A stretch of 64,000 nt of DNA, taken from the NCBI GenBank assembly GCA_036012755.1, contig DASCPX010000059.1, positions 129,870-193,869 of the forward strand, written 5' to 3'. This DNA comes from Myxococcota bacterium. Lineage in GTDB: Bacteria > Myxococcota_A > UBA796 > CAJQPC01. Below the pieces are notes generated by a model. It was not told the origin of the DNA, did no database searches, and worked only from the letters and a program-made list of their open reading frames with translations. Numbering within the stretch: the first letter of the stretch is position 1; every line of letters begins with the position of its first letter. Shown piece after piece: positions 28,982 to 48,375 of this stretch. The position numbers and the translations under genes were made by a program.

Positions 28982-31177
28982 ATGAACCAGTCCCAACCCA
29001 AGGGCCTCCGCCTCGGGACATTCCTCGGCGTCTACACGCCGACCGTCCTCACGATCCTCGGCGTCATCCTGTATCTGCGGATGGGCTGGGTCGTGGGCAA
29101 CGCCGGCATCTGGGGTGCCGTCGCGATCGTGCTCATCGCCAACGGCATCACGGCCATCACCGCCCTGTCGATGTCGGCCCTGTCCACGAACATGCGGGTC
29201 GGGGTAGGCGGCGCCTACTACATCATCAGCCGCTCGATGGGCCTGGAGCTCGGTGGCGCCCTGGGCATCCCGCTCTACCTCTCGCAGGTCCTGTCGGTGA
29301 CGCTGTATGCCTTCGGACTGGCGGAGAGCACCGTCTTCGTCGCCTCGGAGCTGGGTGGGATCGAGAACACCGAGGGCTTCGTCCAGCCCCTGGCCGCGCT
29401 CATCGTGATCGCCGTCACGGCGCTGGCTGCCCGCAGCACCGAGCTCGCCCTCAAGGCCCAGCTGCCGATCCTGGGCTTCATCGTGATCTCGCTGGTGGCC
29501 CTCTGGGTCGGCGTCGACTTCGACGTCCAGCACGCCCGGAGCACCGGGCCCTTCGAGGAGGTGGGCTTCTGGGGCGTCTTCGCCGTCTTCTTCCCTGCGG
29601 TGACCGGCGTGCTCGCTGGCGTCGGGCTCTCCGGCGACCTCCGCGATCCCGGGAAGTCCATCCCCCGCGGGGTCGGCCTGGCTGTCGTGACCGGCTTCGT
29701 CGTCTACATCTCCGCACCCTTCGTGCTGGGCTACGCCGCCCCCATCGACGAGCTGCTCACGAACAAGCTCATCTGGACGGAGGTCGCGGTCTTCGGCGCC
29801 TTCGCGGTCCTCCCCGGGCTCTTCGGCGCCGTGCTGTCCTCGGCCATCGGCAGCATCCTCGGAGCCCCCCGGACGATGCAGGCCCTGGCTCAGGATGGGC
29901 TCGTCGATCGTCGCCTCGGGCGGGTCGACGAAAAGACGGGCGAGCCGATGGTCGCCCTTTACATCAGCGGTGCCGTCGCGTTGGCCGCCGTCGCCCTCGG
30001 TGACCTCAACGCAGTCGCCGCGGTCGTCTCGATGTTCTTCCTGACGACCTACGGGATGCTGAACCTGGCATCAGCGCTAGAGGCCTGGATTCGCGATCCC
30101 AGCTACCGCCCGCGCATCCGCGTGCCCTTCTGGATCAGCCTGGTGGGTGCGCTCGGTTGCGCCCTGGCCATGGCCCTGATCAGCCCCTTGGCCTTCGTCG
30201 CGGCGGTGCTCATCGAGACCGGGATCTGGTGGTGGCTCAGCCGCCGTCGGCTCCAGGCCACCTGGGGCGATCTGCGGAGCGGCTTCTGGTTCGCGACGGC
30301 CCGGCTCGCGATGGTCCAGCTGCGCACCGCACGCATCGAGCCCCGCAACTGGCGCCCCCACATCCTCGTCTTCACGCCGAACCTGGAGCGCGACGTCGGC
30401 GTCGTGTCCATGGCCGCCCACTTCGGTCAGGACCAGGGCATCGTCTCGGTGTTGACCTTGCACAAGGGCCACCTGGACGACCGGGATGTGCCCAAGCGCA
30501 CCCTCGCTCGGAACCGCGAGCTCCTGGTGGCGGCTGGCGTGATGGCCTTTCCAGAGGTCGTCACCTGCGAGAACAAGGAGCTCGGCCTGCTCTCGGCCTG
30601 CCAGGCCAACGGCTTCGCTGGCATCGAGTCCAACATGGTGTGCTTCCGCTGGCCGTCGAAGCGCGAGCGCCTCGAGCGCATGATCCGCTGGGTCCGCCAC
30701 TTCGACGACCTCGAGAAGAGCACGATGATCATGCGACCGGTGAAGGGGAGCCGGACCAAGGAGGGAGGGGGCGAGGTCCTGGTCTGGTGGAAGGGCAAGG
30801 AGGCCAACGGCGACCTCATGTTGTTGCTGGCCCACCTGCTCGTGATGAGCAAGGCCTGGCGCGGTGCGCGCATCACGCTCGCGAGCGTCGTCGAGTCCGT
30901 CGAGGAGGGAGAGGCGCTCAGCAAGCGCGTGGCCGGGGGTCTGGCAGGGACCAACATCCAGGCCGAGATCGAGGTCGTCGTGCGGCCCGACGACCACTCC
31001 CCCCTGGACTGCATCAGTGAGCGTTCCAGGCAGGCGGACCTCGTCTTCCTGGGTCTCGCGCGCGCCGAGCCAGGGACCGAAGAAGACATCGCCGCTCGGC
31101 TGATCACCCTGGTCGAGGGCATGCCGAGCGTGATCCTGGTCCGCAACTCGGGGCCCTTCCGCGGACGGCTCGTCTAG
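28982..31177 (+). CDS. Cation-chloride cotransporter (SLC12-like amino acid permease)
   Basis: LGTFLGVYTP..LTILGVILYLRMGWVVG, GGAYYIISRSMGLELGG, FAVFFPAVTG..G..LSGDL, NWRPHILV cytoplasmic domain. Confidence 0.92.
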   Translation: MNQSQPKGLRLGTFLGVYTPTVLTILGVILYLRMGWVVGNAGIWGAVAIVLIANGITAITALSMSALSTNMRVGVGGAYYIISRSMGLELGGALGIPLYLSQVLSVTLYAFGLAESTVFVASELGGIENTEGFVQPLAALIVIAVTALAARSTELALKAQLPILGFIVISLVALWVGVDFDVQHARSTGPFEEVGFWGVFAVFFPAVTGVLAGVGLSGDLRDPGKSIPRGVGLAVVTGFVVYISAPFVLGYAAPIDELLTNKLIWTEVAVFGAFAVLPGLFGAVLSSAIGSILGAPRTMQALAQDGLVDRRLGRVDEKTGEPMVALYISGAVALAAVALGDLNAVAAVVSMFFLTTYGMLNLASALEAWIRDPSYRPRIRVPFWISLVGALGCALAMALISPLAFVAAVLIETGIWWWLSRRRLQATWGDLRSGFWFATARLAMVQLRTARIEPRNWRPHILVFTPNLERDVGVVSMAAHFGQDQGIVSVLTLHKGHLDDRDVPKRTLARNRELLVAAGVMAFPEVVTCENKELGLLSACQANGFAGIESNMVCFRWPSKRERLERMIRWVRHFDDLEKSTMIMRPVKGSRTKEGGGEVLVWWKGKEANGDLMLLLAHLLVMSKAWRGARITLASVVESVEEGEALSKRVAGGLAGTNIQAEIEVVVRPDDHSPLDCISERSRQADLVFLGLARAEPGTEEDIAARLITLVEGMPSVILVRNSGPFRGRLV

Positions 31178-31809
31178 GCGCAGGGCTTGCCGACATCCAG
31201 CCGAGCGAAGTCCTTGTGGAAACGACGCCACTGGGTCGGGACGAGGTGACGGCCGTCGCTCAGGAGGTGCCAGGGCTCCATCGCCGTGAGGTCCTTTCGC
31301 AGCTCGAGCTTGTCCACCGAGGCGTTCGTGAAGTCCCAGATCGCCGTCGCGAGGCGGTCGAAGCCGTCCGGGCCCTCGCGCAGGCGGCGTGCCTCAGAGG
31401 CCGACAGGGGGTGGGCCTCGAGAGAGGGCCACTCGACCATCGGGCGGATCAGCGCCGGCAAGGCGTGACCCTCGACGGAGAGCTCCAGCGTGCGGACACG
31501 CTCGTCGATGCGGCCCACCAGGGGTGCGATGGACAGGACACCGGTCGGCTCGGGCTCCAGGTGGGCGACCACGTGCCACCAGGCCCGCCAGGCCTCGCGC
31601 TCGAAGGCCAGCATGGCCTCCACCCGTCGCTTCCAGGCGCCGTCGACGAAGGGGAGGACGAACACCAGCGCGTCGCGTCGAGGCGAGCTCGCCGGAGTCC
31701 GGAAGGTGTCCAACAGGCCGCGGGTGCCCGGGGGTGGCAGGAGGTCGACGGCCGGGCGTCCGAGCGCCTCGGTCACGCTCTCGGGAGTCAGGATCATGCG
31801 AGGCAGCAT
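31174..31809 (-). CDS. Hypothetical protein, last gene of the SEDS-PBP-Hsp70 operon
   Basis: TGATG coupling with the upstream gene; no recognised motif. Confidence 0.7.
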   Translation of the reverse strand: MLPRMILTPESVTEALGRPAVDLLPPPGTRGLLDTFRTPASSPRRDALVFVLPFVDGAWKRRVEAMLAFEREAWRAWWHVVAHLEPEPTGVLSIAPLVGRIDERVRTLELSVEGHALPALIRPMVEWPSLEAHPLSASEARRLREGPDGFDRLATAIWDFTNASVDKLELRKDLTAMEPWHLLSDGRHLVPTQWRRFHKDFARLDVGKPCA

Positions 31810-33569
31810 CAGGCCTCCAGGTAGACGAGCACGGCGCGCACGGTGTGGCCGCGAGGCGCGCGCGGGACGAGGGGGACCTGCACCCGCACGATGAGTCCGG
31901 GGGCTGCGGTGGCCGGTGGCGCCCGATCGCCGAGGATGTCCTCGAGGCGCACCGGCGTCGTGAGCACCTTGCGGTTCAGGAACTCCCGCTCGCGCACCCG
32001 GTACAGCGGCACGTGCTCGTAGCCGTAGCCCAGGCGGGACAGGGCGGCGGCGGTCGCCTCTTCGACGGGGACGTCCACCCGCGAGGACTCCGGGACCTCG
32101 TGCGGGAGGGCCTCTACCAGGAACTGGGCGAGTCGGAGCCAGGGCACCACGAAGCGGTTGAAGACCTCGCGGCGCAGGCCGTTGGCCAAGGCCAGGCCGT
32201 CGTCCTGCTGCTTACGCTCGACCGTTGGGGCGAGGCTGGCCCAGGCCCGGTAGCCTCGCGCCGGACGGGCCGAGCGTCGGGAGTAGGCCTTCTCGGCCAG
32301 CACCGCCTGGCACACGTCGTCCAGGGAGCCGGCTCCGAGGTGTCGGGCGCCGATGGCGAAGGCGCTGAGCTCCCGGTAGCCCTCGCGGAAGCCCTCTTCG
32401 AGCTCCTCCCAGCGCTGGTGGTAGTCCCCCTCCGTGAGGGCGCGAAGCCGCTGGGAGGCCTCCAACAGATCGCGCCCTCGACGGAAGAGATCGCCGTGCT
32501 CGGCCATGCCGAGGTCACAGACGGCCCCGCAAGCGCTGCGCAGCTCCGGGTACTCCAGCGCCTGGCCCAGCGCTCCACGCAGGCCGTCGTGCTCCGGGGC
32601 GGTCGGCTTCTCCACCGCGAGCTCCTCGACGCGCTCTGCCTCGGCGGCCTTCTCTGTCTCCAGGGAGGCGACGCGGCCCCCCAGCGCCCGCATCCCTGCG
32701 CGCGCCTGGTCCAGCTCTGCCTGGAGGTCCGAGATCCTGCGCTCCTTCAGCTGCAGGCGACTGCGCAGGGGGCCGGCTTCGTCGACGGTCGGCCTCGCCC
32801 GCTCCCGAATCCGGGCGGCGATGAGCCCGAGCACGATGCCGCCAGCGCCAGCCAGGACGATGAGCAGCCACGACTTCGGAGCTCCCTGTTCGGCCGGCTC
32901 CTCCAGGGGGGCCTCCTCGACGAGGACCTCGAGCTCGGGGGTGGTCACGCTCAGGACCACGGCGGGGAGGCTCGGAGAGTCGCAGGAGGGTGTGCGCGCG
33001 AAGTCGAACAAGAGCAGCTCTCCCCTGGCTCCGGGGGGCAGCGTGCAGTCCTCGAAGGCGAAGCCCTGGGGCCCGACCGTGACGGCGCAGGTCTGCTCGC
33101 CCAGCCTCAGCACGCCGGCGTGGACACGGGCGTCCCGGGACAGTCCATGCAGCACGCCGCCGGCGTTGTCCGCCCAGGTCTGCTCGCCGCAGGGTCGGCG
33201 GTTGCTCTGCTCGGAGCTCCAGAAGGTGTGGCTCCAGACGGTGCGGATCGGCTCCAGCGGCTCGAGGTCGTTCGGGGACTCGAGCACGAGCTCTCCCCGC
33301 AGCGGGATCAGGGCGGGATCCCCGTCCTCTTCGCCGCCAGAGGGACACCAGCGCGGCGGGGCGGTGGTGCCGGAGGGGTCGCCGAAGCCCCACTCGTCAC
33401 CGTCGCACTTGCGGCCGGTGCGCTCGTGGACCAACGGTGAAGCGAGCAGCATGTCGCCGGCATCGCTCGGGATCACCAGGCCGTACCGAGACCGGTCCGC
33501 GTCGTGGAAGCCCGGCTCGCCGAGCTCTACCCCCAGGGGCGCCGCCAGCGCTGGGAGCACCCAGATCAC
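31809..33569 (-). CDS. Single-pass membrane protein with cytoplasmic coiled coil (C-terminus weakly GrpE-like)
   Basis: GTG at 33569 overlaps the upstream stop; short signal MIWVLPALA; Cys-rich ectodomain; TM WLLIVLAGAGGIVLGLIA; heptads LRSRLQLKERRISDLQAELDQ. Confidence 0.72.
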   Translation of the reverse strand: MIWVLPALAAPLGVELGEPGFHDADRSRYGLVIPSDAGDMLLASPLVHERTGRKCDGDEWGFGDPSGTTAPPRWCPSGGEEDGDPALIPLRGELVLESPNDLEPLEPIRTVWSHTFWSSEQSNRRPCGEQTWADNAGGVLHGLSRDARVHAGVLRLGEQTCAVTVGPQGFAFEDCTLPPGARGELLLFDFARTPSCDSPSLPAVVLSVTTPELEVLVEEAPLEEPAEQGAPKSWLLIVLAGAGGIVLGLIAARIRERARPTVDEAGPLRSRLQLKERRISDLQAELDQARAGMRALGGRVASLETEKAAEAERVEELAVEKPTAPEHDGLRGALGQALEYPELRSACGAVCDLGMAEHGDLFRRGRDLLEASQRLRALTEGDYHQRWEELEEGFREGYRELSAFAIGARHLGAGSLDDVCQAVLAEKAYSRRSARPARGYRAWASLAPTVERKQQDDGLALANGLRREVFNRFVVPWLRLAQFLVEALPHEVPESSRVDVPVEEATAAALSRLGYGYEHVPLYRVREREFLNRKVLTTPVRLEDILGDRAPPATAAPGLIVRVQVPLVPRAPRGHTVRAVLVYLEA

Positions 33570-35653
33570 AACAGGTCTCCCCAGCCGAAGGGCAGGCCGG
33601 TGATGGGGCTCCTCGGGGCGGGACCCTCGTCGTCCGGGGCCTCCGGGAGCGGGATGGGTTCTCCGCCCTCGACGAGCTGCCAGAGACCCAGGCGCCAGCG
33701 GGCCGCGTCGAAGCGCGCCAGGAGCGAGCACTCGCTGGCCAGCGGCACGTCGAGGGTCGCGATGGTGCGGCTCGTCCAGCTGTCCGAGTCCCCGAACCAG
33801 GCGTCGACAGAGGTCGGGAAGCGGCGCTGGGCGAACTGGACCCGCGCGTCTCGACCGACCCGCGGCAGTCGCACGACGGCCCGTGCCTGTCCTCCGGGGA
33901 TCAGGCGCGTCCCAGCACGCCAGACACGCGTCTCCGGGCGCATCTCCAGGCGGTAGGTGATCTCCTGACCCACGAAGTGGCCGACGGCGGTCCCAGCGCT
34001 GGTGGTCGAGGCACAGGCCCCGCGCACGCAGGCGAGCTTCATGTGGTCGACGTCGTCCTCGTTGGCCGCGGTCGTGAAGTCCACGGCGTCGCTGGTGCGC
34101 ACCAGCCCCCGCTCGACGAGGTAGACAGCGAGGGCCTCGCGGAGGCCGGGCAGCAAGGCTCCACGGCCGCTGACGACCACGCGGTCGATGGTCCCGTGGT
34201 CCTCGCCCGGCGGGAAGAGGTCATCCACCACGGTGCAGATCGTGGCTCGGAGGAACTTCGTCAGCCGAGGTCCCCAGGCGCTGTGCGGGACCGGCGGCAG
34301 GGCCTTCAGCCCGTAGGCCTGGAAGTCGAGCTCGCCAGCGGAGATGGACTCCGGGCTTCCCGGTAGCAAGGCCTGGGCGAGCCAGATCGCCCAGCTCTCG
34401 GCGAGCACGTCCCCCTGGTTCCGAGCCTCTGACAGGACCCGCGAGAGCTCGGTCGACCAGTCGATCTTGGCTGGTGAGACCTGCCCGAGCGCGCCGCGAC
34501 GGTTCTCTCGACCGGTCCCGGCGATGTCCGAGACCACCTCCGCGATGCGCTCGTCGAGGCGGCCCTCCCGGAGGTCGGCCAGGCAGCGCACGAGCAGCTC
34601 GTCGACGTCGTTTCCACCGACCGTGACCCCCGAGTGGCGCTCGATGGCGACGCGAGGGAGGCCCTCGTCGATCTCGGCGGACACCAGCGCCGCGTCCGTG
34701 CTGCCTCCGCCGACATCGAAGACCAGCAGCCGGCTGGGGGGCAGGGTGCTCGCCCGGGGGTTGCTGCCGCGCCAGCGGGCCAGCTCCCACCACACGACCG
34801 CGTCGGCTTCGCGGACCAGCGAAGGCACAGGCACTGCCTGGTCGAAGTGCCCCCAGCCGCGGGCGGCGAAGAGGCTCTCGAGGAAGCGACGGAGCCCCGC
34901 GTGAGAGGCGTGCTGGAGCAGCTCACACTCGTAGGCGCCGAAGGCGTTCGGCACGGTCAGGCGGAGCTCCAGACCCTGGGTCCGGATGGCGTCGACCGGG
35001 AAGCCCTCGATGCCGAGCCCCTCGCAGTAGTCGTCGTCCTCGAGCTCGAAGATCGCGAGCTCCTCGCGGATGGTGCCGGAGCCCTTCGGTGTCAGCGCGA
35101 GGGTGACGAGCTCCTCGACGACCTTCTCCAGCGGATGGGCGAGCTGACCGGCGCCCTTGCCCTGCCGTCGTCCGTCCGCGAGCAGGCGCTTGAGCGAGCG
35201 GTAGTAGCGAAAGCGCGGATCCGGTGCCGCTTGGTCGCGCAGTCGCCTGGCGGGCGCCCCGAGCACGGCTGGCTCGTCCGGATCCCGGTGGACCGCGAGG
35301 ACCGAGTCGATGGTGTGGCGAAAGGTCCGCGGCTCGCGGCTGGCGACCACGAGGCGGGCCAGCTGCCCGTCGAGGCCCCGCGGCCACGCGACGGCGCAGG
35401 CGGAGGTGCCGAAGTCCAGGCAGAGCCGCAGCGGCCGGACGGCTGTGACCTGACGGCCACCGTCGGGCTCGAGCATGGGCAGGCTCGCCGAGGCCTCTTC
35501 GACGACCTCGACCTCTGTGGCTTCGGTCTCGGCGGATCCGTCGGTCAGGAGGTTCTGGTCCTCGCCGGGGATCTCTGCGTAGAAGTCGTCCCCGTCCACC
35601 GGGGCCGTGAAGAAGTCCAGGACCGTCTGCACGAAGCGCTGCCACCAGGTCAT
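33566..35653 (-). CDS. Divergent Hsp70/actin-fold ATPase
   Basis: LCLDFGTS (phosphate-1), SLKRLL, LTVPNAF, VREADA, VFDVGGGSTD (phosphate-2), VGGNDVD, VVSGRGALLP; no DnaK substrate-binding domain. Confidence 0.87.
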   Translation of the reverse strand: MTWWQRFVQTVLDFFTAPVDGDDFYAEIPGEDQNLLTDGSAETEATEVEVVEEASASLPMLEPDGGRQVTAVRPLRLCLDFGTSACAVAWPRGLDGQLARLVVASREPRTFRHTIDSVLAVHRDPDEPAVLGAPARRLRDQAAPDPRFRYYRSLKRLLADGRRQGKGAGQLAHPLEKVVEELVTLALTPKGSGTIREELAIFELEDDDYCEGLGIEGFPVDAIRTQGLELRLTVPNAFGAYECELLQHASHAGLRRFLESLFAARGWGHFDQAVPVPSLVREADAVVWWELARWRGSNPRASTLPPSRLLVFDVGGGSTDAALVSAEIDEGLPRVAIERHSGVTVGGNDVDELLVRCLADLREGRLDERIAEVVSDIAGTGRENRRGALGQVSPAKIDWSTELSRVLSEARNQGDVLAESWAIWLAQALLPGSPESISAGELDFQAYGLKALPPVPHSAWGPRLTKFLRATICTVVDDLFPPGEDHGTIDRVVVSGRGALLPGLREALAVYLVERGLVRTSDAVDFTTAANEDDVDHMKLACVRGACASTTSAGTAVGHFVGQEITYRLEMRPETRVWRAGTRLIPGGQARAVVRLPRVGRDARVQFAQRRFPTSVDAWFGDSDSWTSRTIATLDVPLASECSLLARFDAARWRLGLWQLVEGGEPIPLPEAPDDEGPAPRSPITGLPFGWGDLL

Positions 35654-37653
35654 GCTTCCACCCACACGCGCACGGTCGGCTCGTGTTCGTCCATGGGCCC
35701 CCCGGGGGCGTCGACGTCGACCCGGACAGGCGGCTTCCGGGGGTGGACGTAGCGGGGGCGAAGACACCAGGCTCCGTCGGCGGTCTCCACGATCACCTCG
35801 GCTGCGATGCGCGTGCCGGCCATGAGCGCAGCGACGGCCTCGCGGACCTCTTGGGGGCGGCCGTCGTCAGGGACGCCGGTCGCGCCACGGCGGCTGAGGG
35901 CCCAGCCCGGAAAGGGCCCCTCTGTGGGGAAGACGAGCTCCTCGTCCAGCAACCAGCCGGCGAACTCCAGGCCCCGCAACAGGCAGCCCCGCCAGGCGGT
36001 GCGCTCGACACGCTCGGCGGGCAGGAGGCTGTCGTAGCCGAAGCCCTCGAAGTGGTACTGCAGGCCGTCTCCGGTGAGCTCGCCGCCGACACGCAGGTGC
36101 GCGCTCCGACCGCGTCCCTCCAGGCGAAGGCCGCCGCCGGTGTTCCAGGCGCGGAGTGGCCAGAAGGGGCCGAGCTCGTTGAGGTCGAGGATCGCCAGGG
36201 GGCTGTCCAGCTCGAAGGCCCACTGGCCGGACTCGCCGAGGGAGCGCACGACACCATCCAGCAACAGGCCGCGGTGGAAGATCCTCGCTCGCCCCTCTCC
36301 GACGAGGTGGAAGCGGCCCCCCACGGGCTCGAGCTCGACCAGTTCACAGGCGGAAAAGACCTTCGGGTCCAAGATGCCGCGGGCGTCTCCGCGTCCGATC
36401 CGCACGGTCTCGCCTGTCCGAAACAGGAGCCGCAGGGCGTCGAGGTCGTCGACCTCGTTGAGCACGATGTGGTGGCGCCCTGGCAGCCAGGCTTCGACAG
36501 GGCCGGCGCGGACGAGCTCCTCCAGGTCCTCGGCACTGGCCGCTGCCAGCGGCTCGAAGGCGAGGTCGTCGACCGGGCCCTCTTGACCGGTCTCGGGGTA
36601 GCGGACGCGGCCGTCCGTGCCGAGGCTCCAGCGGGCCGCGGTGGTCTCGACGGGCTTCAGGGCCACCCGCGCCGGTGCCGGTGCTGCCCCGACCGCCGCC
36701 GGGTGGCTCCAGCGCGCGCGGAGCGGGGGCGGCTCGAGGACGACGCGGCCCAGGACGCCCTGGCCTGCGACCTCGACCGAGAGGTGGCCGATGGGAGCCA
36801 GGCGCGGACTCCAGGCGGGGCTGAGCACATAGGCGTCGCCGGCGCGCTGGCCTTCGATCTCCACGCGGTCCACGCGCTCGCCGATGTGGTGGTGGAGCAC
36901 GAGCCCGAGGCGCTCGGGGCGCAGGGAGACGCCCTGCAGCACCAGCTTGGACAGGGGCAGCTCGACAGGGCCCAGCCCGGTGAAGGAAGTCTCTACGGAC
37001 AGCGGGACCGTCGGGCTCGAGAGCGGGCCGTCCTCTCCGACGAGGTTCGTCCAGATCCGGACGTGGGGGTCCTCGAGCGTCTCCAGGGTCGACAGCTCGA
37101 CCACTCGGCCGCCGTCGAGGACCTCTGCCCCCTGCACCGCGCCAGCGGGCAAGGGCGCACCTCCCACGAAGTGCAGGGTCGGCAGCACCAGCTCCAGCTC
37201 GTCCTCGTCGCCGACGATGCGCGCGCCGGTCGGGGCCTCGAGCGCGACCGGGCCGCCGGGGCCCACCTCGATGGAGGGATCGGGGAGCTCGATGCGCTCC
37301 TCGCCGCGGACCACCGTGAACCTCCAGCGGTCCCTGGTCCGCTCCTTCTCGAGCACGCAGTGGAGCTCGCAGCCCTCCATGGGCAGGACGAAGCGCTCGA
37401 CCCCTTCCGAGAGCTCGGTCCACACCCAGGCGTGGCCCTGGACACGGAGCGGAAGGGCGCGACGGTGGAGCTTGCCGTCCTTGGGGACCCAGTCGCAGAG
37501 GAAGGGCCTGCGCTCCTCGCCGCCGAGCACCCCGAGCAGCTTGCGGAGGTCGCGCAGGACGCGCTCCTCGACGTTCTCGTACCAGAGGCCGCAGGGCTCG
37601 AAGTGATCGCCCCGGTCGACGATGCGCAGGACCTCGTCGCGCTGCACCTTCAT
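35650..37653 (-). CDS. Hypothetical beta-rich protein (667 aa)
   Basis: ATG at 37653 overlaps the PBP stop, and its own stop overlaps the ATPase start; coding-like frame. Confidence 0.75.
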   Translation of the reverse strand: MKVQRDEVLRIVDRGDHFEPCGLWYENVEERVLRDLRKLLGVLGGEERRPFLCDWVPKDGKLHRRALPLRVQGHAWVWTELSEGVERFVLPMEGCELHCVLEKERTRDRWRFTVVRGEERIELPDPSIEVGPGGPVALEAPTGARIVGDEDELELVLPTLHFVGGAPLPAGAVQGAEVLDGGRVVELSTLETLEDPHVRIWTNLVGEDGPLSSPTVPLSVETSFTGLGPVELPLSKLVLQGVSLRPERLGLVLHHHIGERVDRVEIEGQRAGDAYVLSPAWSPRLAPIGHLSVEVAGQGVLGRVVLEPPPLRARWSHPAAVGAAPAPARVALKPVETTAARWSLGTDGRVRYPETGQEGPVDDLAFEPLAAASAEDLEELVRAGPVEAWLPGRHHIVLNEVDDLDALRLLFRTGETVRIGRGDARGILDPKVFSACELVELEPVGGRFHLVGEGRARIFHRGLLLDGVVRSLGESGQWAFELDSPLAILDLNELGPFWPLRAWNTGGGLRLEGRGRSAHLRVGGELTGDGLQYHFEGFGYDSLLPAERVERTAWRGCLLRGLEFAGWLLDEELVFPTEGPFPGWALSRRGATGVPDDGRPQEVREAVAALMAGTRIAAEVIVETADGAWCLRPRYVHPRKPPVRVDVDAPGGPMDEHEPTVRVWVEA

Positions 37654-40600
37654 GGGCTCGTCACCTCCAGGTATTGAGCGATGCGCTCCAGGATCCGGCG
37701 CGCGGCGGTCTTGGCGACGGTGTCGTGACCGTCGACGACCACTGCGAGCACGTAGCCCTCTCCGAGCGGGTTGCCCTCCGAGTCTTCGGCGAGCCCGTCG
37801 AAGGCCACGGCCACGAAGCTCGTGCCCGGCACCAGCACGACCTCCGGCGCGGGCGTAGCGAACAGGCCCAGGACCTCGTCGAGCCAGACACCGCCGTCGA
37901 CCGGGAGGTCCTCTGTCCCGAGGTTCGCCGAGACCCCGGCTCGGTTGGGGCTGACCGCCTCGCAGGCCTGGGCCCCCGCGCCGAAGCCGTGGGGGGGTGT
38001 CTCGCCAGCGAGCACGTCGGCGACGACCGCCTCGAGGTAGGGGCGCTCCCGCATCGTGCGGCCCGCTCGCCGCCAGCCAGAGGCCGTGCTCAGCGACAGC
38101 GCCAGGGTCTCCCAGTCGGATCGCTCGTAGGTCGCCCCGACCTGGCCACAGGCCCATGCCTCGATGCCGGCGCGGGCCAGCCCGCCCTGGGTGACCGGCG
38201 CGGGGTTGGAGGCCGCCTGGGTCGCGAAGGTGCCGGTCTTTCCGCCGATGCGGTCCTGGAGCGGGCTGCCCTGGAAGTAGCGGACCGCGGTCGAGCCGCT
38301 CACGCCTACGACGGCTCGCATCGCCGCCTCGACACGGTCCGCCTGCTCGTCGGTCATGAGCGCCTCTGTGGACAACCGCAGCTCCTCCTCGCCCTCCATC
38401 CGGACGAGGTCCGGGCTGACGACGCCGTGGTCGTCGCGAGCCATCGGAGAGGCCATCACCGCCAGCCCCAGCGCAGAGGTCTGCACACCTCCGAGGCCGT
38501 AGCCGAGCCGGGCGTAGTTCGCGAGATGGGTCACGCCGAGGTGTCGCTGGAGCTCGCTCGCCTGGCCGGCGCGGCTGTAGCGGAAGTCGATCTTGCGCTT
38601 CTGGCCGTCGTCGAGGCCATAGATCTCGGGCCCCTCGAAAGAGGGGTAGACGAAGCCGCCGAGGCGCACTCCGGGCAGCCAGCGGGCGGCGCCGACGGTC
38701 GGGAAGGAGATCCCGTTGACGGCGTCCTTGTCCTGGCTCGAGAAGGCCATGCGGTAGTGCGTGCGGTGTCCGAGCTGCACGAGGGTGTCGACGAAGAGGT
38801 TGTCCCGGCCGAGGTCGTCCTCGATGGAGAAGCCGGGGTCGAGGACCACGACGAGGTCGCCGCCGGTCTTCCAGAGTCCGCCGGAGACCTCTGGCTGGAT
38901 CGCGGAGCTTTCGCCGAAGCCGACCTTGGCGCTCGGGACCAGGTCGATCGTCGCCAGGGCGAAGTAGGGGTTCTTGGACTTGCGGAAGGCGTCGAAGAAG
39001 CCAGCGGAGGCCGAGGCCGCGTGGAAGGTCTGGCGGCGACCCTCGTCGTCGCTGCAGCGCACGGTCTTGCTGGTCCGCACCGCACCCGGGTCCTCTGGGA
39101 AGAGGGTGGCCTCCTCACTGGGATCATCCGGCAGATGAAGGGAGGAGAACACCATGCGAACGCAGCTGATGTCGTCCAGGGCAGGCCTGGCGGGCTGGTC
39201 GAGGAGGCCCCCGCGGGCCATGGCGTAGGAGGTCGCGAGCTTGTAGACGGATCCAGCGCCCTTGTTCCGGCGGAAGGCGAGGTTCTCGAGCTCTGCCGGG
39301 GCACGCCAGTTCCCGTCCCGCTGGCGAAGTCGGGCCTGGAGCTCCTCCAGCGCCACCTTGTCGTTCGGGTCGAAGCTCGGGTGGTTGACGACTGCGTGGA
39401 GGTCGCCCGTGGGCGCGTGGAGGAGCACTGCCTGGCCAGTGACGGTCTCTGCCCTGCCGGCGGGTTCGGTGTCGGAGAGCACCGCGCTCAGCTCCGCGGC
39501 GATGATGCGCTGGAGGTCTCCCGAGAGCATGAGCTCGACGCCTTCCTGCTCGGCGGGGAGCTCGTCGCAGGTGTCCTCCCAGGCCTCTGAGGCCTCGCGC
39601 CAGACCCCCGGCTCCAGCCAGCTCTCGAGTCCGCCGTAGACCACACCCCGAACCCCGACGACAGCGGCGAGGTCCTCGCCGAAGGGGTAGCGACGCACGA
39701 CGCGCTCGTCTCGCACCACGCTCTCGGCCGCCCGGTCCGGGTTGTCCGGGTCGCTGAGCAGCAGCACCAGCTCGTAGGAGCCGCTCTCGAGCCTCAGCCG
39801 CGCCCCGTCCTCCAGTGGGTTCGGCGTGTCCTCGGCGAGGTCCTCCAGGCGGGTCGTCTCAGAGCCCGGGGGCTCCAGCAGGAGCTCGCCCGGTCCGGTC
39901 CTCGTCACCTGCAGGACGCCGTCCTGGCGCCAGAAGGTCGCGCAGGTGGCGGACTCGGAGCCCAGCTTCTCCGCCGGATCCCAGGTCGCGCTCGCTCCGC
40001 GCACGCCGAGGTGACCCAGCGGTACGACCGCGGCCGAGGAGAGCTCGACACCGGCGCGGGCCCGGTCGCCCAGGCAGATCGTGGACTCGTCCGAGCTCAA
40101 CAGCAGCCGACTGCCGGCGAGGGTGCCCTCTTCGACCTCGAGGAAGGCCGAGGTGGAGCCCTGGGCGAGGTCGATCGGAGGGCGTGCGTAGCCGGAGCGG
40201 GCCAGGCGGCAGCTCGTGTCCCCGTCTGGGACCGCCGGGCTCGCGCTGGGCCCGCTGCGGGTCGAGAACGGACGCACCCCCAGCACCCGGGTGGGGACGA
40301 GCACCATGTCGTCCTCGCCAGCGACACGTGCCCAGTCGAAGACGAAGCCGAGCTCGCTGGGATCCGGGACGGCCTCTGGGAGATCGCGCAGGGACGCCGC
40401 CGCTCGGCGCAGCTTGTCGGTGGTCTCGCGATCGTGGGCCTGCTCCTCTGCAGCACGGAACAGCTCCGGCTCGGGCGGCGGGATCGGCGAGCCGTCGCAG
40501 GCGACGCCGGTCTCCAGGTTCCAGCGGAAGCGAGCGGGGAAGGGCTCGTGGGGGCCGGGGGGATCGGCGGGGTCGTAGTCGGAGTCGAAGCAGAGCAGCT

Positions 40601-41624
40601 CGTTGTCGATGAAGGCCTGCAGTCGCTCCTCGAGCTCGTACTCGACCCGGTGGTCGGCGAGGTGTGTGCGCCACATCCAGGGCCAGGGCGAGGAGCTGAA
40701 GAGCTCCTCCCGCGAGAAGGCCACGAAGCGCTTCTGGCCGTCCGCCTCCCAACCCAGCGGTGTGTCGGCGGCCTTGAGCGTCGCCAGCGGCCAGCTGGGC
40801 AGCTCCAGGGACATCCAGCGGCGGTCTCCGGCGAGGCGGCGCCAGGTCGGATCGTCCCGCTCGGTGTCCGGGATGCGCATGCGGACCTGCGTGGCGCCGT
40901 CGAGGTCGACCCGGACACGCTCGACGACCATCGGGACCTGGCCGGCCCAGATGTGATCCCCGTCATGGACCGGCACCGCTTCGCCGTGGCCGGGTGCGCG
41001 GCGGAGCAGGGGGGCGCTCTCTCCGGCGGCGACGCGAGTGCCCCCTTCCTCCGTGCGCAGTCGGGCGCTGGAGTCGATGACGAGGCTTCCGCGGAGACCT
41101 CCGTTCTCGACGCAGAGCAGCCCCCCACCACAATCGGCGGGTGCGCGCAGCAGGAGGTGCTCGACGCCCATGCCGGCCACGGGCAGCACGATGTCGGCGT
41201 CGCGCCCCAGCCCCACGGTCGCGAGGACCCCCTCGCCGCCCTTCGGCACGTCGACCTCGAGGCCGTCGAGGACCAGGCGGTGGCTGTTCCCATCGACGTC
41301 CAGGCGGAAGCGGGTCCTGCCCCGCTGTCCGGTCTCACACGCGATGGCGCTCTCCGGGGCGAGCTCGGTGGCCTCTCGGCCGTCCTCGCCGATGCACTCG
41401 ATGCGCGAGGACAGGGCGTAGCGGTCCGCCGTGCCTCGCACGAGCTTCAGGGTGAAGAGGCGCTCACCCCGCAGGGGGAGGTAGATGAGCTTCTCGCTCT
41501 CGTCGGAACTCGGCCGCTCGGGGCTGCGTGCGCGCAGGGTCCAGGCGGCCAGCACCGCCGTGCCGAGGAGCAGCAGGCCCAGGGACAACAGGCGCCGCCA
41601 ACGGGGGGTCTTGCGGCCGGTCAT
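37650..41624 (-). CDS. Giant class B penicillin-binding transpeptidase with FHA-like inserts (1324 aa)
   Basis: N-terminal TM; RRYPFG..AAVVG..GGLE pedestal motif; GSVYK (SxxK), SKN (SxN), GKTGT (KTG). ATG at 41624 overlaps the SEDS stop. Confidence 0.88.
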   Translation of the reverse strand: MTGRKTPRWRRLLSLGLLLLGTAVLAAWTLRARSPERPSSDESEKLIYLPLRGERLFTLKLVRGTADRYALSSRIECIGEDGREATELAPESAIACETGQRGRTRFRLDVDGNSHRLVLDGLEVDVPKGGEGVLATVGLGRDADIVLPVAGMGVEHLLLRAPADCGGGLLCVENGGLRGSLVIDSSARLRTEEGGTRVAAGESAPLLRRAPGHGEAVPVHDGDHIWAGQVPMVVERVRVDLDGATQVRMRIPDTERDDPTWRRLAGDRRWMSLELPSWPLATLKAADTPLGWEADGQKRFVAFSREELFSSSPWPWMWRTHLADHRVEYELEERLQAFIDNELLCFDSDYDPADPPGPHEPFPARFRWNLETGVACDGSPIPPPEPELFRAAEEQAHDRETTDKLRRAAASLRDLPEAVPDPSELGFVFDWARVAGEDDMVLVPTRVLGVRPFSTRSGPSASPAVPDGDTSCRLARSGYARPPIDLAQGSTSAFLEVEEGTLAGSRLLLSSDESTICLGDRARAGVELSSAAVVPLGHLGVRGASATWDPAEKLGSESATCATFWRQDGVLQVTRTGPGELLLEPPGSETTRLEDLAEDTPNPLEDGARLRLESGSYELVLLLSDPDNPDRAAESVVRDERVVRRYPFGEDLAAVVGVRGVVYGGLESWLEPGVWREASEAWEDTCDELPAEQEGVELMLSGDLQRIIAAELSAVLSDTEPAGRAETVTGQAVLLHAPTGDLHAVVNHPSFDPNDKVALEELQARLRQRDGNWRAPAELENLAFRRNKGAGSVYKLATSYAMARGGLLDQPARPALDDISCVRMVFSSLHLPDDPSEEATLFPEDPGAVRTSKTVRCSDDEGRRQTFHAASASAGFFDAFRKSKNPYFALATIDLVPSAKVGFGESSAIQPEVSGGLWKTGGDLVVVLDPGFSIEDDLGRDNLFVDTLVQLGHRTHYRMAFSSQDKDAVNGISFPTVGAARWLPGVRLGGFVYPSFEGPEIYGLDDGQKRKIDFRYSRAGQASELQRHLGVTHLANYARLGYGLGGVQTSALGLAVMASPMARDDHGVVSPDLVRMEGEEELRLSTEALMTDEQADRVEAAMRAVVGVSGSTAVRYFQGSPLQDRIGGKTGTFATQAASNPAPVTQGGLARAGIEAWACGQVGATYERSDWETLALSLSTASGWRRAGRTMRERPYLEAVVADVLAGETPPHGFGAGAQACEAVSPNRAGVSANLGTEDLPVDGGVWLDEVLGLFATPAPEVVLVPGTSFVAVAFDGLAEDSEGNPLGEGYVLAVVVDGHDTVAKTAARRILERIAQYLEVTSP

Positions 41625-44600
41625 GAGCGCTCCTCGAGCATGGCCTCGGCGGCCTCGCGACGGGCGGTCATACGGAGCCCCTGGTGGTGCTCGGACATCG
41701 AGCGGGCGTAGAGACCCGTCGCGACCCCCACCAGGAGCGCGAAGCCCATCGCCGCCGAGCCGCCGCTGGAGACCCAGGGGAGCGTGATGCCCGTCTGGGG
41801 GACCGTGTTGAAGCAGGTGCCGATGTGCACGACGACCTCGCTGGCGACGTAGAGCGCACCGAAGAAGCAGAAGTAGCCAGCGGCCGCCCAGCGGCGGGCC
41901 TGGATCTCGGCCCGGTCGCTCATCGCGTCGGCGATCGCGCCGGGCAGGGCCTGGTCCTCTGCGTGCTGTCCGACTGCCCGCAGCAGCCCACCGGCCCGCT
42001 CCAGGAGCTGGTCTCCAGCTCCGATCAGGCCGCCGACGAGCACGGCGAAGGCCAACAGCACCAGGAGCGCTCGGCGCAGACCCCAGCTCTGGAGCAAGGC
42101 GATGAAAGCCAGGTCGTTGTGCAGGTTGGACAGGTAGACCTCGTTGCCTTCGCCGTAGAAGCCCGCGGCGATCCAGTGGGCCTTCGTGCTCCACCAGCCC
42201 GGGGCCGTGTACCAGGTGTGCTGCCAGGTCTCGCCACGGTCGATCGCTCGCTCGATGCTGCGGCCGACCCTCGGGATCTCGGTGACCTGGTCCTGGAAGG
42301 CGGCGGTGAGGAAGACGAAGAGCTCGACGAAGCCGACCAGCGCCACGACCACGACCGCGAAGACCGCCAGCCGCGAGAGGACACGCCGGGGACGAAGGCG
42401 GGTGCTCGCCCAGGGGAAGGCCCACAGCGCCAGCATGCCGACGACCGAGGGCACGATGACCATCAGGGGGCCGAGGTCCGCTCGGGCGCCGTAGCAGATG
42501 AGCAACAGGCCGCCGATGAGCACGGTGTAGCCGAGCGCTCGGGCCGGGACGCGCCACCACTCGGAGCTGTGCTCCCTGGAGAAGCCGGCGAGCAGCCCGG
42601 CGATGCCCATGCCGATGAGTGTGGGCGTGAACTCGGCGGGCTTGAGATCGAAGCCGGCGAGCCAGCGACTGCCAACGGCGACGTCGAGGAGGGCCCCGAG
42701 CACGAGCACCACGAGGCCCACGCAGAGGGCCAGCAGGCCGAAGGTCGAGGCCCCGTCTTCTCCGGCGGGCTTGTCCAGCATGAGGTGCATGGCCCGCGAG
42801 ACGGGTCCGCGGCGCTCGCGGTACCAGCTCATCCAGGGCTTCTCGGAGAGGCGCTCGGCGAGGACCTCTGGGTGGACTGCGCGCAGCCAGGCGGGATCGG
42901 GCCGATCGTGGGTGAAGCGGGCCAGGAGCAGTGAGCCGCCCAGCAGCGCAGCGCCGATGACCCAGACACTCACGACCCCCCTGGCGAGGGCGGCCCGGAC
43001 CAGATCGCTGGTGGGCAGCTGCTGGACCGGCGGGCCCACCAGCGCCCAGAGGCCGAGGTCGATGCTCACCCACACGGCGAGGCCGAGCACACCGACACCG
43101 AGGGTGCGCCCGGTCAGCGCGAGGAGCTGCCAGGCGCTGCTGGCGCGCCAGCGGTGGCCGAGGCGCACACCCAACAGCAGCAGCACCGCGGCGCCGTAGC
43201 CCGTGATGAGGTGGCGCTGCACGTAGTCCGGGGAGCCCAGCAGCGCGTCGCTCGCGGCCATGCGCATCTGGAGGGCACCCCCGGCGGACAGGAGGATCGC
43301 AACAGAGCCCAGGACCAGCAGGATGGGGAGGGAGATCGGAGCGCGACCGCCGCGGGTGGCGACGCCCGTTGCCTCCCGCAGCGCGGCGACCACGAGGCCG
43401 CAGACCAGCACGAGGAAGCCACCGAGGGGGATGCGCTGGTCCCGGAGCGGCTGGTGATCCCAGTAGCGGAGGGTGTGTCCGGCGAGGGGGAAGCTGTCCC
43501 CGGGGGTGAAGCGTCCCTCCGCGCCCGGGAGGTCCGGGGGCAGCAGCGAGCGCACCACGAGGTCGTCCTCGCTCGTGCACAGCGCCGCGAGATCGACGGT
43601 CGTTCGTCCCTCCTCCTGGACATCGTCGTGCCGCAAGGCGAGCCAACGAGGCAGCGGCAGGTCGTGGAGGCTGTCCCCGGCCTGTCGCACCGTGTGCGCT
43701 GAGCTGCGCTCGACTCCGTCGGGGAGGAGGACCTCGCTGGTCGCACCGCGCAGGACCAGGCGGCCCTCGTTGCAGCTCGGCACGTCGACGCGTGCCCCCC
43801 AGGCCTGGAGTCGCCCGGCGCTCAGCGAGGACAGCAAGCGGACCCGCCCGCTCGGCGGGAGCTCCAGGTCGAAGTCGACGCTGTCCTCGTCGACGGACAC
43901 GGCGTAGTGGACCCCAGCGCCCGCGACGAACCAGTCGCCTCCCGCCAGATCGGTCTCGCCGACCTCGCTGGGGCACTCCTCGCCATCGGAGAGGCAGTCC
44001 TCGAGCAGCTCGCAGTCGAAGACGTGGACGGAGCCCTCGTGGTTCGGTGTGCGCGCGACCTGGAGCGCAGGCGGGGCGTCGACGAGGGACAGGGCCCAGT
44101 CGACCGGGCGGAACCAGGGGCTGATCGACTCGCCGCCGGGACCCTTGCGGAAGAGGAAGACCTCTGGGCCGTCCGGTCCCAGCGTGAAGGTGGACGCCCC
44201 CAGTCCGGCAGGTTGGACCGGCGCAGCCGCGGCCCCGCCGACCACGAGGTAGGCGGCGTGCTTCAGGACGCGGTCGGCGCTGACGTCCTCGCCGATGGTC
44301 GGGTCCGCGGACAGGGCGACCACGAGCGGCTCGGGCAAGCCGCCTGGTAGGGGGACGAGCTCCCAGGTCGAGTCCGCCACCCGAAGGCGGGCCAGGAGGC
44401 TGCCCTCCTCTTCGACGACCTCGAGCACGGCCTCGCCGATCTCCCGCGAGGCGCCCTGCTGCAGGGGGACGAGCACCGTGCGGACCTCGTCGCCGGTCTC
44501 GAGCCAGACCCCGACCGCGTCGATCAGCTCGACTCGGGCCCAGGAGACACCTTGGTGAACGCCGTGATCGGCGCTCGAGTCACAGGCCTGCTCCATGGCG

Positions 44601-45013
44601 GCGCCGCCGGTGGCCTCGTCCAGATCGTCGAGCCCAGAGAGCACCAGGACGCGCTCCCCGGCTGGCACGGCGCGGTTGCTGAAGGTGTCGTCGCGGGTCC
44701 CGAGACCCTCTGGCCTGGTGACCAGCGCCGAGCGATGGGCGGCCTCGTGCTGGTAGTGGACCACGCCGCCCTCGACCGTGAGCAGGCCCAGCCGGGGGGC
44801 CACGAGGGCTTCGTCGAGGCGCAGGTCCGACTCGGCGCTCCGGCCGACGGTGAAGCTGTCCCCCACGCGGTCCAGGGGGAGGGTGTGGCCGATGACCTGG
44901 ACGGTCGGCCCGTCGCGCACAGCGGTCCCCCAGGGCAGGATTCCCAGGCTCACCACCAGCGCTCCGAGGAAGAGCGCCAGCCACCACGCGTCGGTCCGCT
45001 GCAAACGGCGCAA
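41621..45013 (-). CDS. Giant FtsW/RodA/SpoVE (SEDS) protein with large N-terminal FHA-like region (~1130 aa)
   Basis: TTG at 45013 after GGAGG; FTVGRSAESDLRL; SEDS motifs KPAEF, DLG, LHNDLAF, PQTGITLPWVSSGGS. Confidence 0.88.
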   Translation of the reverse strand: MRRLQRTDAWWLALFLGALVVSLGILPWGTAVRDGPTVQVIGHTLPLDRVGDSFTVGRSAESDLRLDEALVAPRLGLLTVEGGVVHYQHEAAHRSALVTRPEGLGTRDDTFSNRAVPAGERVLVLSGLDDLDEATGGAAMEQACDSSADHGVHQGVSWARVELIDAVGVWLETGDEVRTVLVPLQQGASREIGEAVLEVVEEEGSLLARLRVADSTWELVPLPGGLPEPLVVALSADPTIGEDVSADRVLKHAAYLVVGGAAAAPVQPAGLGASTFTLGPDGPEVFLFRKGPGGESISPWFRPVDWALSLVDAPPALQVARTPNHEGSVHVFDCELLEDCLSDGEECPSEVGETDLAGGDWFVAGAGVHYAVSVDEDSVDFDLELPPSGRVRLLSSLSAGRLQAWGARVDVPSCNEGRLVLRGATSEVLLPDGVERSSAHTVRQAGDSLHDLPLPRWLALRHDDVQEEGRTTVDLAALCTSEDDLVVRSLLPPDLPGAEGRFTPGDSFPLAGHTLRYWDHQPLRDQRIPLGGFLVLVCGLVVAALREATGVATRGGRAPISLPILLVLGSVAILLSAGGALQMRMAASDALLGSPDYVQRHLITGYGAAVLLLLGVRLGHRWRASSAWQLLALTGRTLGVGVLGLAVWVSIDLGLWALVGPPVQQLPTSDLVRAALARGVVSVWVIGAALLGGSLLLARFTHDRPDPAWLRAVHPEVLAERLSEKPWMSWYRERRGPVSRAMHLMLDKPAGEDGASTFGLLALCVGLVVLVLGALLDVAVGSRWLAGFDLKPAEFTPTLIGMGIAGLLAGFSREHSSEWWRVPARALGYTVLIGGLLLICYGARADLGPLMVIVPSVVGMLALWAFPWASTRLRPRRVLSRLAVFAVVVVALVGFVELFVFLTAAFQDQVTEIPRVGRSIERAIDRGETWQHTWYTAPGWWSTKAHWIAAGFYGEGNEVYLSNLHNDLAFIALLQSWGLRRALLVLLAFAVLVGGLIGAGDQLLERAGGLLRAVGQHAEDQALPGAIADAMSDRAEIQARRWAAAGYFCFFGALYVASEVVVHIGTCFNTVPQTGITLPWVSSGGSAAMGFALLVGVATGLYARSMSEHHQGLRMTARREAAEAMLEERS

Positions 45014-45109: not shown

Positions 45110-45349
45110 ATGGCCACACTTCTGATCATCGCCCAGAAACTCGTAGCGATGTTCGAGGACGCGAAGAGCCTCAAGGAGCTCAGTGAGCGAGAGCGCGAGG
45201 TCTGCGACCTGCTGCTCAAGGGCCTCTCCGCGGTGCAGGTCGGCGAGAGCCTCCACATCAGCCCTCACACGGCGCGCAACCACATGAAGGCCATCTTCCG
45301 GAAGCTGGACGTGGGCACCCAGCTGGAGCTGATCAACCGCTACGCCTGA
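45110..45349 (+). CDS. Stand-alone LuxR-type HTH regulator
   Basis: LSEREREVCDLLLKGLS..VGESLHISPHTARNHMKAIFRKLDV; GGAGG before ATG 45110 (alternative start 45149). Confidence 0.9.
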   Translation: MATLLIIAQKLVAMFEDAKSLKELSEREREVCDLLLKGLSAVQVGESLHISPHTARNHMKAIFRKLDVGTQLELINRYA

Positions 45350-45494
45350 GCGCTTCGGACTCTGGAGTGTGCCGGCGTCCGGTGGAACTCAGGCGGAAGG
45401 GAAGGGCAGGTCTTAGCTGAGTGCGCCCCCACCGGACGTCGGCGGTACCTGGATCATCGGTGCCGCCGGGTCTGATCTCCATGGCCACATCCAG

Positions 45495-46298
45495 TCAATC
45501 CGACAGCTGCCTGCGGACGGCGTCGCGGAGCTCTCGCAGTCGGATGGGCTTGGTCGGGTACTCCCGCATGCCCGCCCGCAGCGCGTCCCGCCGGAAGTCG
45601 TCCGTGGCATGGCCCGACAGGTCGAGGATGGCCATCTCCGGGTTCTTGCCGAGGGCTCCAACCTGGAGTCCCGCCAGGATCCGGACGTGCCCCTCTTCGG
45701 TGAACTTGATCGCGTTGGAGATGAGGTTCAGGAGCACCTGGCGCATGCGGGAGCGGTCCCCGCGCAGCAGGGACGGCAGACCGACCTCCGCGAACACGCT
45801 CAGCTCCAGCCCTTTCGCCTCGGCTCGGCTCGCGAAGAGCAACACAGCGCTGTCGAGCAGCTCCTCGACGTCGAAGTCCTCGTTCCTGAGCTCCAGGCGT
45901 CCGGCCTCGATGCGGCTCATGTCGAGCACGTCGGAGAGCAGGAGCTCGGTGCGAGCCTCCGTGCGGAGTGTCGGGTCCTCCTCCGGGATCGCGGCGCGTA
46001 GAGCCTCTACATGGATGGCGACCAGCCCCCCTCCCGTAGTCAGGGACGGCGACATCGCCTCGACCTTCTTCTCGACGGAGAGCAGGTCATCGAGGGCCCT
46101 GTCCACGGCTGGCTCGAAGGGCGCGGTCGTCTGGAGCACGCGCTGGGCGTGCTGGAGCTGTCGGATCAGCTGGATCCGCCGCTCGCGGTCTGCCTGGAGC
46201 TCCCTCGACTCCTGGGCGACCCCGAGGGACCAGAACGCAAAGAGGCAGAGGGCAATGAGCCCACTCGCCCAGCGAAGCCAGAAGCGCATCCGGTCCAT
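45495..46298 (-). pseudogene. Internally deleted hybrid histidine kinase
   Basis: Keeps DVLDMSRIEAG, GD..RMRQVLLNLISNAIKFT (N-box) and the receiver tail AGM..Y.TKP; lacks the H-box, G boxes and receiver Asp. Confidence 0.8.
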
Positions 46299-48350: not shown

Positions 48351-48375
48351 GGGACCAGCGACAGGATCGCGGACC

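Follow-up and report, generated by a model that had tools for sequence, protein, structure and literature searches.

By what means might a bacterium control a peptidoglycan synthase that is encoded apart from its division genes? The question is raised by a six-gene operon on the minus strand at 31174..45013 of a 64,000-nucleotide stretch of a Myxococcota bacterium genome (contig DASCPX010000059.1, positions 129,870 to 193,869; the whole of this stretch is hereafter the window). Pairs formed by a SEDS protein and a class B penicillin-binding protein (PBP) are core wall synthases and key antibiotic targets, and the known activators of such pairs are either cytoskeleton-linked (MreB/MreCD/RodZ, FtsA/FtsQLB/FtsN) or spore-specific. 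Comparison across genomes shows that genes for a predicted SEDS polymerase, class B transpeptidase, Hsp70-type ATPase, non-catalytic protein of kinase fold, bitopic membrane protein and soluble protein, U667, are inherited as a set, and this conserved set points to an undescribed control of wall synthesis. In the reading that we favour, with a probability of roughly 55%, the operon would encode a peptidoglycan synthase that works conditionally and outside the septum. A membrane-associated ATPase of Hsp70 type would gate it from the cytoplasmic side, acting via a bitopic adaptor and a pseudokinase, and the periplasmic arms of the synthases would serve as scaffold or sensor. The genes, with the evidence for each assignment, are as follows.

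41621..45013, minus strand: giant SEDS glycosyltransferase, 1130 amino acids (Pfam, alignment, hydropathy)
37650..41624, minus strand: giant class B PBP, 1324 amino acids (Pfam, alignment, PDB sequence match)
35650..37653, minus strand: U667, 667 amino acids, no assigned family (open reading frame, hydropathy, profile)
33566..35653, minus strand: Hsp70-type ATPase, 695 amino acids (alignment, hhalign, PDB sequence matches)
31809..33569, minus strand: bitopic adaptor, 586 amino acids (hydropathy, structure model)
31174..31809, minus strand: U211, minimal protein-kinase-like fold, 211 amino acids (structure model, fold searches)

A preliminary description of the window, made by a model from the letters alone, had proposed six genes of these lengths coupled by stop/start overlaps. 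This was borne out: all six reading frames are open, with a GC content at third codon positions of 0.90-0.91 in the coding frame, and the five junctions overlap as ATGA (41621-24, 37650-53 and 35650-53), GTGA (33566-69) and TGATG (31809). The SEDS gene starts with TTG at 45013, a GGAGG lying 8 nucleotides upstream. No promoter or terminator consensus was found, and the last stop codon of the operon adjoins an amino-acid permease gene that is convergent with it. The Pfam cut-offs are passed by the SEDS and transpeptidase domains only, leaving four of the six proteins with no family above them, and NCBIfam gave sub-threshold matches only.

The two synthases and the proteins encoded with them

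The SEDS protein comprises an N-terminal transmembrane (TM) segment (residues 9-27), a β region of about 500 residues, extra TM helices and the SEDS core, to which the Pfam family FTSW_RODA_SPOVE matches at 36.2 bits, above its curated cut-off. The core carries K791-P-A-E794, D846LG, NLHND965 and TGITLPWVSSGGS, and features of the family are present in its multi-pass topology, its catalytic Asp in extracellular loop 4 and its C-terminal G-x-x-L-P-x-x-S-x-G-G-S motif. Alignment with canonical FtsW (hhalign probability 95.9 over 251 columns) places D965 on the conserved FtsW Asp, and NLHxD965 is kept in all eight homologues. An excerpt of PMC8765783 gives D297 as the residue of E. coli FtsW that is putatively catalytic.

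The PBP has a basic N-terminus, one TM segment (12-30), an arm of about 600 residues with conserved Cys and then the transpeptidase domain, matched by Pfam at 35.7 bits, again above the curated cut-off. Its motifs S792xxK795, S883xN885 and K1129TG are invariant in the eight aligned homologues. The single TM segment, the N-terminal module of non-GT51 type and the SxxK/SxN/KTG series are those of a class B PBP, and no transglycosylase was matched by Pfam; the best PDB sequence match is a PBP2 chain of the T. thermophilus type (6pl5_B, E 1.6e-12), the top relatives being class B PBPs. The description of the SEDS Asp and all three transpeptidase motifs as intact was therefore correct. At the level of sequence both active sites are intact, and polymerase and transpeptidase functions are predicted.

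In both synthases 500-600 residues follow the N-terminal TM segment, and the non-catalytic arm thus makes up more than half of each. Hydropathy predicts that the arms are periplasmic. Of 13 segments compared with FHA domains of the host genome, using 15 column shuffles as the control, four were positive, all of them scoring above the shuffles: SEDS 30-130 (probability 82; score 32.8 against a shuffled maximum of 19.8), PBP 105-245 (56), PBP 450-640 (48) and SEDS 390-525 (31). The similarity is at the level of fold, the Ser of the SxxH phosphothreonine-binding motif not being kept, and Pfam finds no FHA match in the operon proteins. Canonical phosphothreonine binding (G-R, S-x-x-H and N-G motifs in a cytoplasmic domain) was considered for these segments and rejected, since the Ser is lost and the domains lie after the N-terminal TM segment.

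The ATPase is built from a Trp/Phe-rich amphipathic N-terminal segment, an acidic linker, a nucleotide-binding domain, a further linker and a domain resembling the β part of the Hsp70 substrate-binding domain. The nucleotide-binding domain bears D80FGTS, R281E282, D313VGGGSTD320 and S495GRG, and D80, G82, T83, R281, E282, D313, G315, G317 and D320 are invariant in 26 of 26 relatives. Pfam HSP70 falls below its cut-off (E 0.052), and the top PDB sequence matches are all Hsp70/DnaK. The ATPase profile aligns to the DnaK set of the host genome over 408 columns (probability 99.4), continuing through the linker to DnaK residue 436, as against 97 columns only for MreB (a set of two sequences). In view of this longer alignment, which takes in the linker and reaches into the substrate-binding domain, the ATPase is of Hsp70 type and not of MreB/FtsA type. 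The earlier idea that the operon has its own ATPase in place of MreB/FtsA thus stands as regards the presence of an ATPase; its second part amounts to analogy at most. Atlas models superpose residues ~65-695 on Hsp70 proteins with template modelling scores of 0.52-0.59. The 85 residues that remain after the DnaK-aligned end would seem too few for the α-helical lid of DnaK.

The amphipathic character of the N-terminus recurs among relatives, the best of 30 windows reaching at least the 90th percentile in 22 of 26 proteins, a figure that lacks a proper control and is suggestive only. Complex prediction with ATPase residues 66-695 and the adaptor cytoplasmic domain scored 0.00, which weighs neither for nor against their interaction. 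Among 50%-identity representatives the ATPase has 26 distant relatives at E <= 1e-30, two of them from Thermoanaerobaculia records. A scan of viral contigs gave no relative, and a plasmid collection contained no match to the PBP domain or to a distant 1652-residue ATPase fusion. Eleven weak matches from a metagenome scan were dropped, ten being MreB/Mbl genes and one a generic Hsp70 when inspected by eye.

Hsp70-like proteins are also seen more widely. The host genome contains at least nine DnaK-like genes and four GrpE matches (contigs C27, C47, C127 and C160). A large and almost unannotated family of ~1600-1700 residues with a C-terminal Hsp70-like fold (P0042, P0043, P0047, P0053 and similar) includes one protein from a Thiotrichaceae record and one relative with an N-terminal AAA_35/STAND domain; with the operon profiles its members have only the ATPase motifs in common.

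The adaptor begins with a short signal-like N-terminus and a Cys-containing exported domain, followed by a TM segment (234-252), a coiled coil and, at 327-586, a conserved cytoplasmic domain. The last is modelled as a helical bundle plus a small β domain (predicted local distance difference test score, pLDDT, 86; predicted template modelling score, pTM, 0.85). By eye only, its order of elements resembles that of GrpE: hhalign gave probabilities of 0.2-0.3, no better than shuffles, Foldseek gave no match of any kind at E <= 0.001, and VIA-align returned generic helical bundles (best Z 6.8) with GrpE not among the matches listed. Sequence searches of PDB and Pfam were blank.

U211 is modelled with confidence (pLDDT 83, pTM 0.84). 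Its top Foldseek match is PknB (probability 1.00, E 1.4e-3), while a second fold search led to kinase folds of the minimal, effector type (top Z 9.2, with root mean square deviation 3.0 over 129 aligned residues; another at 8.7). Kinase or phosphotransferase titles, or known kinase names, account for 48 of the 50 matches listed in this second search. The N-lobe sheet, αC helix, hinge and a partial C-lobe are all present. Searching PDB by sequence gave no match, so that the placement comes from the fold searches. With motif positions mapped by eye, neither an invariant Lys nor an invariant Asp is found among eight sequences, only the αC-like E70 being invariant, and we therefore predict that U211 is a pseudokinase. 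An active Hanks/PKL kinase was considered and rejected, given that the β3 Lys, catalytic-loop Asp and DFG Asp are not conserved. U667 is rich in Trp, Pro and Gly and has no TM segment by hydropathy. It shows no FHA similarity and no usable Atlas match (Atlas model pTM 0.21), and is probably a cytoplasmic scaffold.

Co-inheritance, gene order and divergence

The transpeptidase half of the PBP and the membrane half of the SEDS protein, as single sequences, and the ATPase profile each match the same eight of 154 genomes of the order, the host (G000) included. Profiles of U211 and U667 match those same eight genomes; their co-occurrence is partly circular, the profiles having been built from the carriers. 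The adaptor was located beside the ATPase by tblastn or alignment and not by a genome-wide search. The order SEDS, PBP, U667, ATPase, adaptor, U211 is kept in five relatives (G002, G051, G071, G014 and G018). The check for co-occurrence across genomes that had been recommended is accordingly positive. In two further carriers the components are dispersed, over four separate loci in G045 and three contigs in G101, with all of them present and the SEDS motif intact. Across the class the PBP profile matches 11 of 182 genomes, adding G059, G194 and G495, and the ATPase profile finds at least five genomes in a 401-genome sample of the phylum, a floor owing to a stricter filter.

Catalytic motifs are kept despite overall identities of 27-45%. 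Even the strongly diverged copy in G059 retains the SEDS Asp, SxxK, SxN and K(S)G, so that the SEDS Asp and PBP motifs are retained in nine of the eleven carriers. Other parts of the system vary. In several relatives the ATPase gene is preceded by one of ~1290 codons encoding an exported domain, a TM helix and a second Hsp70 fold, a membrane-tethered protein not found in G000. Duplication or fusion affects the adaptor and U211 domains in three relatives, G018, G071 and G051, those of G018 and G071 being fused.

The operon evolves quickly. Between the host and G002, of the same genus, FtsW is 75% identical and the PBP, ATPase and SEDS protein are 43%, 40% and 37% identical, respectively. Trees for the PBP and ATPase have in common the well supported clades (G051,(G045,G101)) and (G194,(G014,G018)); all three operon trees place G071 apart from G045 and G101, with which the FtsW tree joins it (support 0.98). 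All are unrooted FastTree phylogenies of 8-11 taxa without a topology test, and the G051 SEDS sequence is cut by a contig end. They suggest that the operon moved as a unit or was differentially lost.

The operon sits at the same place in the chromosome in the host and G002, and is inverted there with respect to the genes on either side. Across 96 bp from the SEDS start, and divergent from it, lies a LuxR-type gene reduced to a 79-residue helix-turn-helix stub (45110-45349, plus strand), beyond which a histidine-kinase gene has decayed to fragments with HATPase and receiver pieces (45495-46298, minus strand). At the matching site G002 has genes for a 220-residue response regulator and a 615-residue kinase-like protein, located at the opposite end of the operon. 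The flank at 45421-52525 encodes a GH3 (NagZ-like) glycosidase, two PP2C-family phosphatases and a Ser/Thr kinase with a TonB_C-like tail. It is at least partly syntenic in G002; in other carriers none of these genes was seen next to the operon.

Several observations count against the favoured reading. Two of the eleven carriers, G194 and G495, which belong to one genus in another order of the class, have a fused and dead synthase, and yet retain ATPase, adaptor, U667-like and U211-like genes. The G194 fusion, of 2519 residues, keeps the periplasmic arms, has lost the SEDS core and shows SxxH, ACN and SRTG in place of the three transpeptidase motifs; that of G495 is similar, with the nucleophilic Ser absent and the C-terminus split. 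The module can thus persist without catalysis. Two non-carriers, G004 and G007, manage with FtsW alone, so that the system is dispensable and no essential role is implied. Finally, the rapid divergence and the incongruence with FtsW would also fit a system of biological conflict.

In such a system, directed against phages or predators or used in predatory contact, Hsp70 would be an NTP-dependent threshold switch, a breach or foreign contact would be detected by the arms and the effector would be local wall synthesis. Its patchy occurrence in the class agrees with this, as do the variation in component number and the fusions between carriers. Hsp70 and GrpE are, according to an excerpt of PMC7159879, core parts of predicted conflict systems, and the phosphate-2 region of the ATPase (51 residues) has a weak PADLOC match to PDC-M61B (E 2e-4). 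Against it, the other five proteins have no PADLOC match, Pfam recognises no nuclease, pore, toxin, GTPase or DnaJ domain in the six, the site is the same in both members of the genus that carry the operon, and the genes have been retained after scattering in G045, unlike those of a mobile cassette. We regard a conflict role as unlikely.

The dead fusions bear on a further explanation, namely that the proteins build a scaffold or a sensing apparatus across the envelope. In it the SEDS protein and PBP would anchor the complex to the wall or open it locally, catalysis being secondary. The retention in G194 and G495 of the FHA-like arms and the other genes would be expected of such an apparatus, as would the size of the arms elsewhere, and FHA-like domains without phosphopeptide residues are known from secretion and sensor contexts (in an excerpt of 10.64898/2026.10.19.760177). 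The intact catalytic residues of the remaining nine carriers speak against it, and in the loci read we saw no gene for a secretin, channel or pilin. This explanation appears to us distinctly unlikely.

Relation to other wall-synthesis and Hsp70 systems

In the host genome (6.7 Mb, 96% complete) ftsI and ftsW lie in a canonical dcw cluster on another contig (C211), and, as the preliminary description had it, no dcw or mre cluster lies at the operon locus. Canonical FtsW is present in every carrier checked. The operon pair is therefore not the only SEDS-PBP pair of the genome; had it been, this would have spoken against an accessory role. A check for separate canonical pairs, for both division and elongation, had been recommended: the first exists, whereas no canonical rodA-mrdA/mreC was found in the 96% complete assembly, whose two MreB genes have no other mre genes near them. 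Of the 154 genomes of the order, 7 gave an MreC match and 147 gave none, and some show FtsW as the sole SEDS protein. With ftsW and ftsI elsewhere and MreC rarely found, the operon is extra to the divisome in a lineage mostly without a Rod system. Conserved catalytic residues, the separate ftsW/ftsI and the co-occurrence of the genes together support, on comparative grounds, the proposal of an accessory peptidoglycan-synthesising machine.

Two other unusual loci with transpeptidase domains were seen in the host genome. The first (L058, C16:25893-31196) encodes a RodA::PBP fusion in a single chain, its motifs intact; before it come a PP2C gene and one that is FHA-like by eye. This locus resembles the actinobacterial one discussed below, and G071 has a SEDS frame of similar size. 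The second (L057, C196:925-9747) contains a frame of 1503 residues that has numerous hydrophobic stretches, carries a transpeptidase at its C-terminus (STVK, KTG; Pfam E 3e-13) and gives no SEDS match. Its neighbours look vWA-like and tubulin-like by eye, with no Pfam match.

The scarcity of MreC invites the idea of a substitute elongasome, in which MreB-like filaments of the ATPase steer the synthase and restore rod growth after loss of mreCD-rodA-mrdA. None of the seven genomes with MreC carries an operon of this type within the order, and the operon SEDS protein is the only one besides FtsW in six of the seven other carriers checked. Further, the dead version in G194 coexists with mreC and an adjoining second full-length SEDS gene (two full-length canonical SEDS genes in all), and the amphipathic ATPase N-terminus has a counterpart in MreB. 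However, the mutual exclusion is expected by chance, only ~0.4 overlaps being expected, and most genomes lack both systems; the ATPase resembles DnaK rather than MreB, and the operon diverges much faster than FtsW. A substitute elongasome is in our view improbable.

The operon resembles the elongasome (MreB-MreCD-RodZ-RodA-PBP2) and the divisome (FtsA-FtsQLB/FtsN-FtsW-FtsI) in combining a SEDS-PBP pair that has canonical catalytic residues with an ATPase of actin/Hsp70 fold and a bitopic membrane protein. It differs in that its synthases are two to three times longer, with periplasmic FHA-like arms, in the DnaK-like nature of the ATPase, with a peptide-binding domain, in the presence of a pseudokinase and in being dispensable, patchy and fast-evolving. 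Families MreC/D, MreB, RodZ and FtsQLB/N find no match among the six proteins in Pfam or NCBIfam. Membership of the Rod complex was rejected, there being no MreB, MreC or MreD among the six, no MreC found in the genome and an ATPase that is DnaK-like; membership of the divisome was rejected likewise, the dcw genes FtsQ, FtsA, FtsZ and FtsL being absent from the operon and the dcw cluster lying on C211.

A further parallel in parts is the actinobacterial fhaA/fhaB-pstP-rodA-pbpA-pknA-pknB locus, which, in excerpts of PMC6554272 and 10.1101/2024.08.13.607006, links a SEDS-PBP pair to FHA domains and kinase folds. Like it, the operon combines an extra pair of synthases with FHA domains and kinase folds, and PknB is the top Foldseek match of U211. 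A pseudokinase, MviN, is likewise in a complex with FhaA in actinobacteria. Unlike the actinobacterial locus, the operon has FHA-like domains that are predicted to be periplasmic and lack the phosphothreonine-binding residues, a non-catalytic kinase fold and an Hsp70 ATPase. The separate locus on C16, with its PP2C gene and RodA::PBP fusion, is closer to the actinobacterial type.

Dedicated Hsp70 proteins, sometimes with a second Hsp70 gene, and membrane-linked components occur in the GAP1-N2 GTPase conflict systems (Kaur et al. 2020, in an excerpt of PMC7159879). As in those, several operon relatives have a second, membrane-tethered protein of Hsp70 fold; unlike in those, no GTPase family is found in the six operon proteins or in 18 proteins of relatives that were scanned. 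As far as the partial texts allow comparison, the operon has parts lists in common with the actinobacterial locus and the Hsp70/GrpE systems of PMC7159879, not architecture. The word FtsW occurs 0 times in the main text of PMC7159879, and no mention of it was found in an excerpt of 10.64898/2026.10.19.760177. A weak likeness exists to SrfB (PF07520) of srfABC, which is a feature neighbour of the ATPase in Atlas (rank 13, 0.94) and matches, below cut-off, 3 of 34 distant ATPase relatives scanned; the ATPase of the window itself has no SrfB Pfam match, and neither SrfA nor SrfC was seen in the operon. Literature searches, in which coverage was thin for subscription papers and did not extend to the source-data supplements of PMC7159879, found no description of the combination. 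The initial failure to recognise a characterised system is consistent with these results, no match to a described system emerging from the literature or from consideration of divisome, Rod, PADLOC and GAP1-N2 membership.

Proposed mechanism and its meaning

In the favoured reading, that of a conditional synthase gated from the cytoplasm, the SEDS-PBP pair would polymerise and cross-link lipid II outside the septum, and the long FHA-like arms, devoid of the phosphothreonine-binding motif, would act as spacer, scaffold or sensor. The amphipathic N-terminus of the ATPase may hold it to the cytoplasmic face of the membrane, where it would run an Hsp70-like cycle of ATP binding and peptide clamping on the adaptor cytoplasmic domain and the pseudokinase and so assemble the synthase or switch it on. 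Transmission of the signal through the membrane would fall to the adaptor, a part played by MreC/RodZ or FtsN in the known machines. The outcome, in a lineage mostly without a Rod system, might be conditional and local wall building for repair, reinforcement or a surface structure. We infer complex formation, the direction of control and the biological trigger, as well as every regulatory step in this scheme.

A bolder extension would see here a third architecture of SEDS-PBP machine beside the divisome and elongasome, in which a membrane-bound Hsp70, an anchored adaptor resembling an exchange factor and a pseudokinase gate peptidoglycan synthesis in place of an actin- or tubulin-like filament, and which, mobile across phyla, serves non-septal growth where the Rod system has been lost. 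We put this forward tentatively, and hold it to be rather less probable than its negation.

Machines of this kind are probably undercounted, their proteins having diverged so far that most evade standard annotation, as do four of the six here. The 147 genomes of the order that give no MreC match prompt one to ask how wall growth is achieved in these cells. The compact six-gene set is suited to reconstitution in a laboratory strain and, if the pair is indeed controlled by an Hsp70 clamp and a pseudokinase, chaperone-type ATP switching would be linked directly to wall synthesis.

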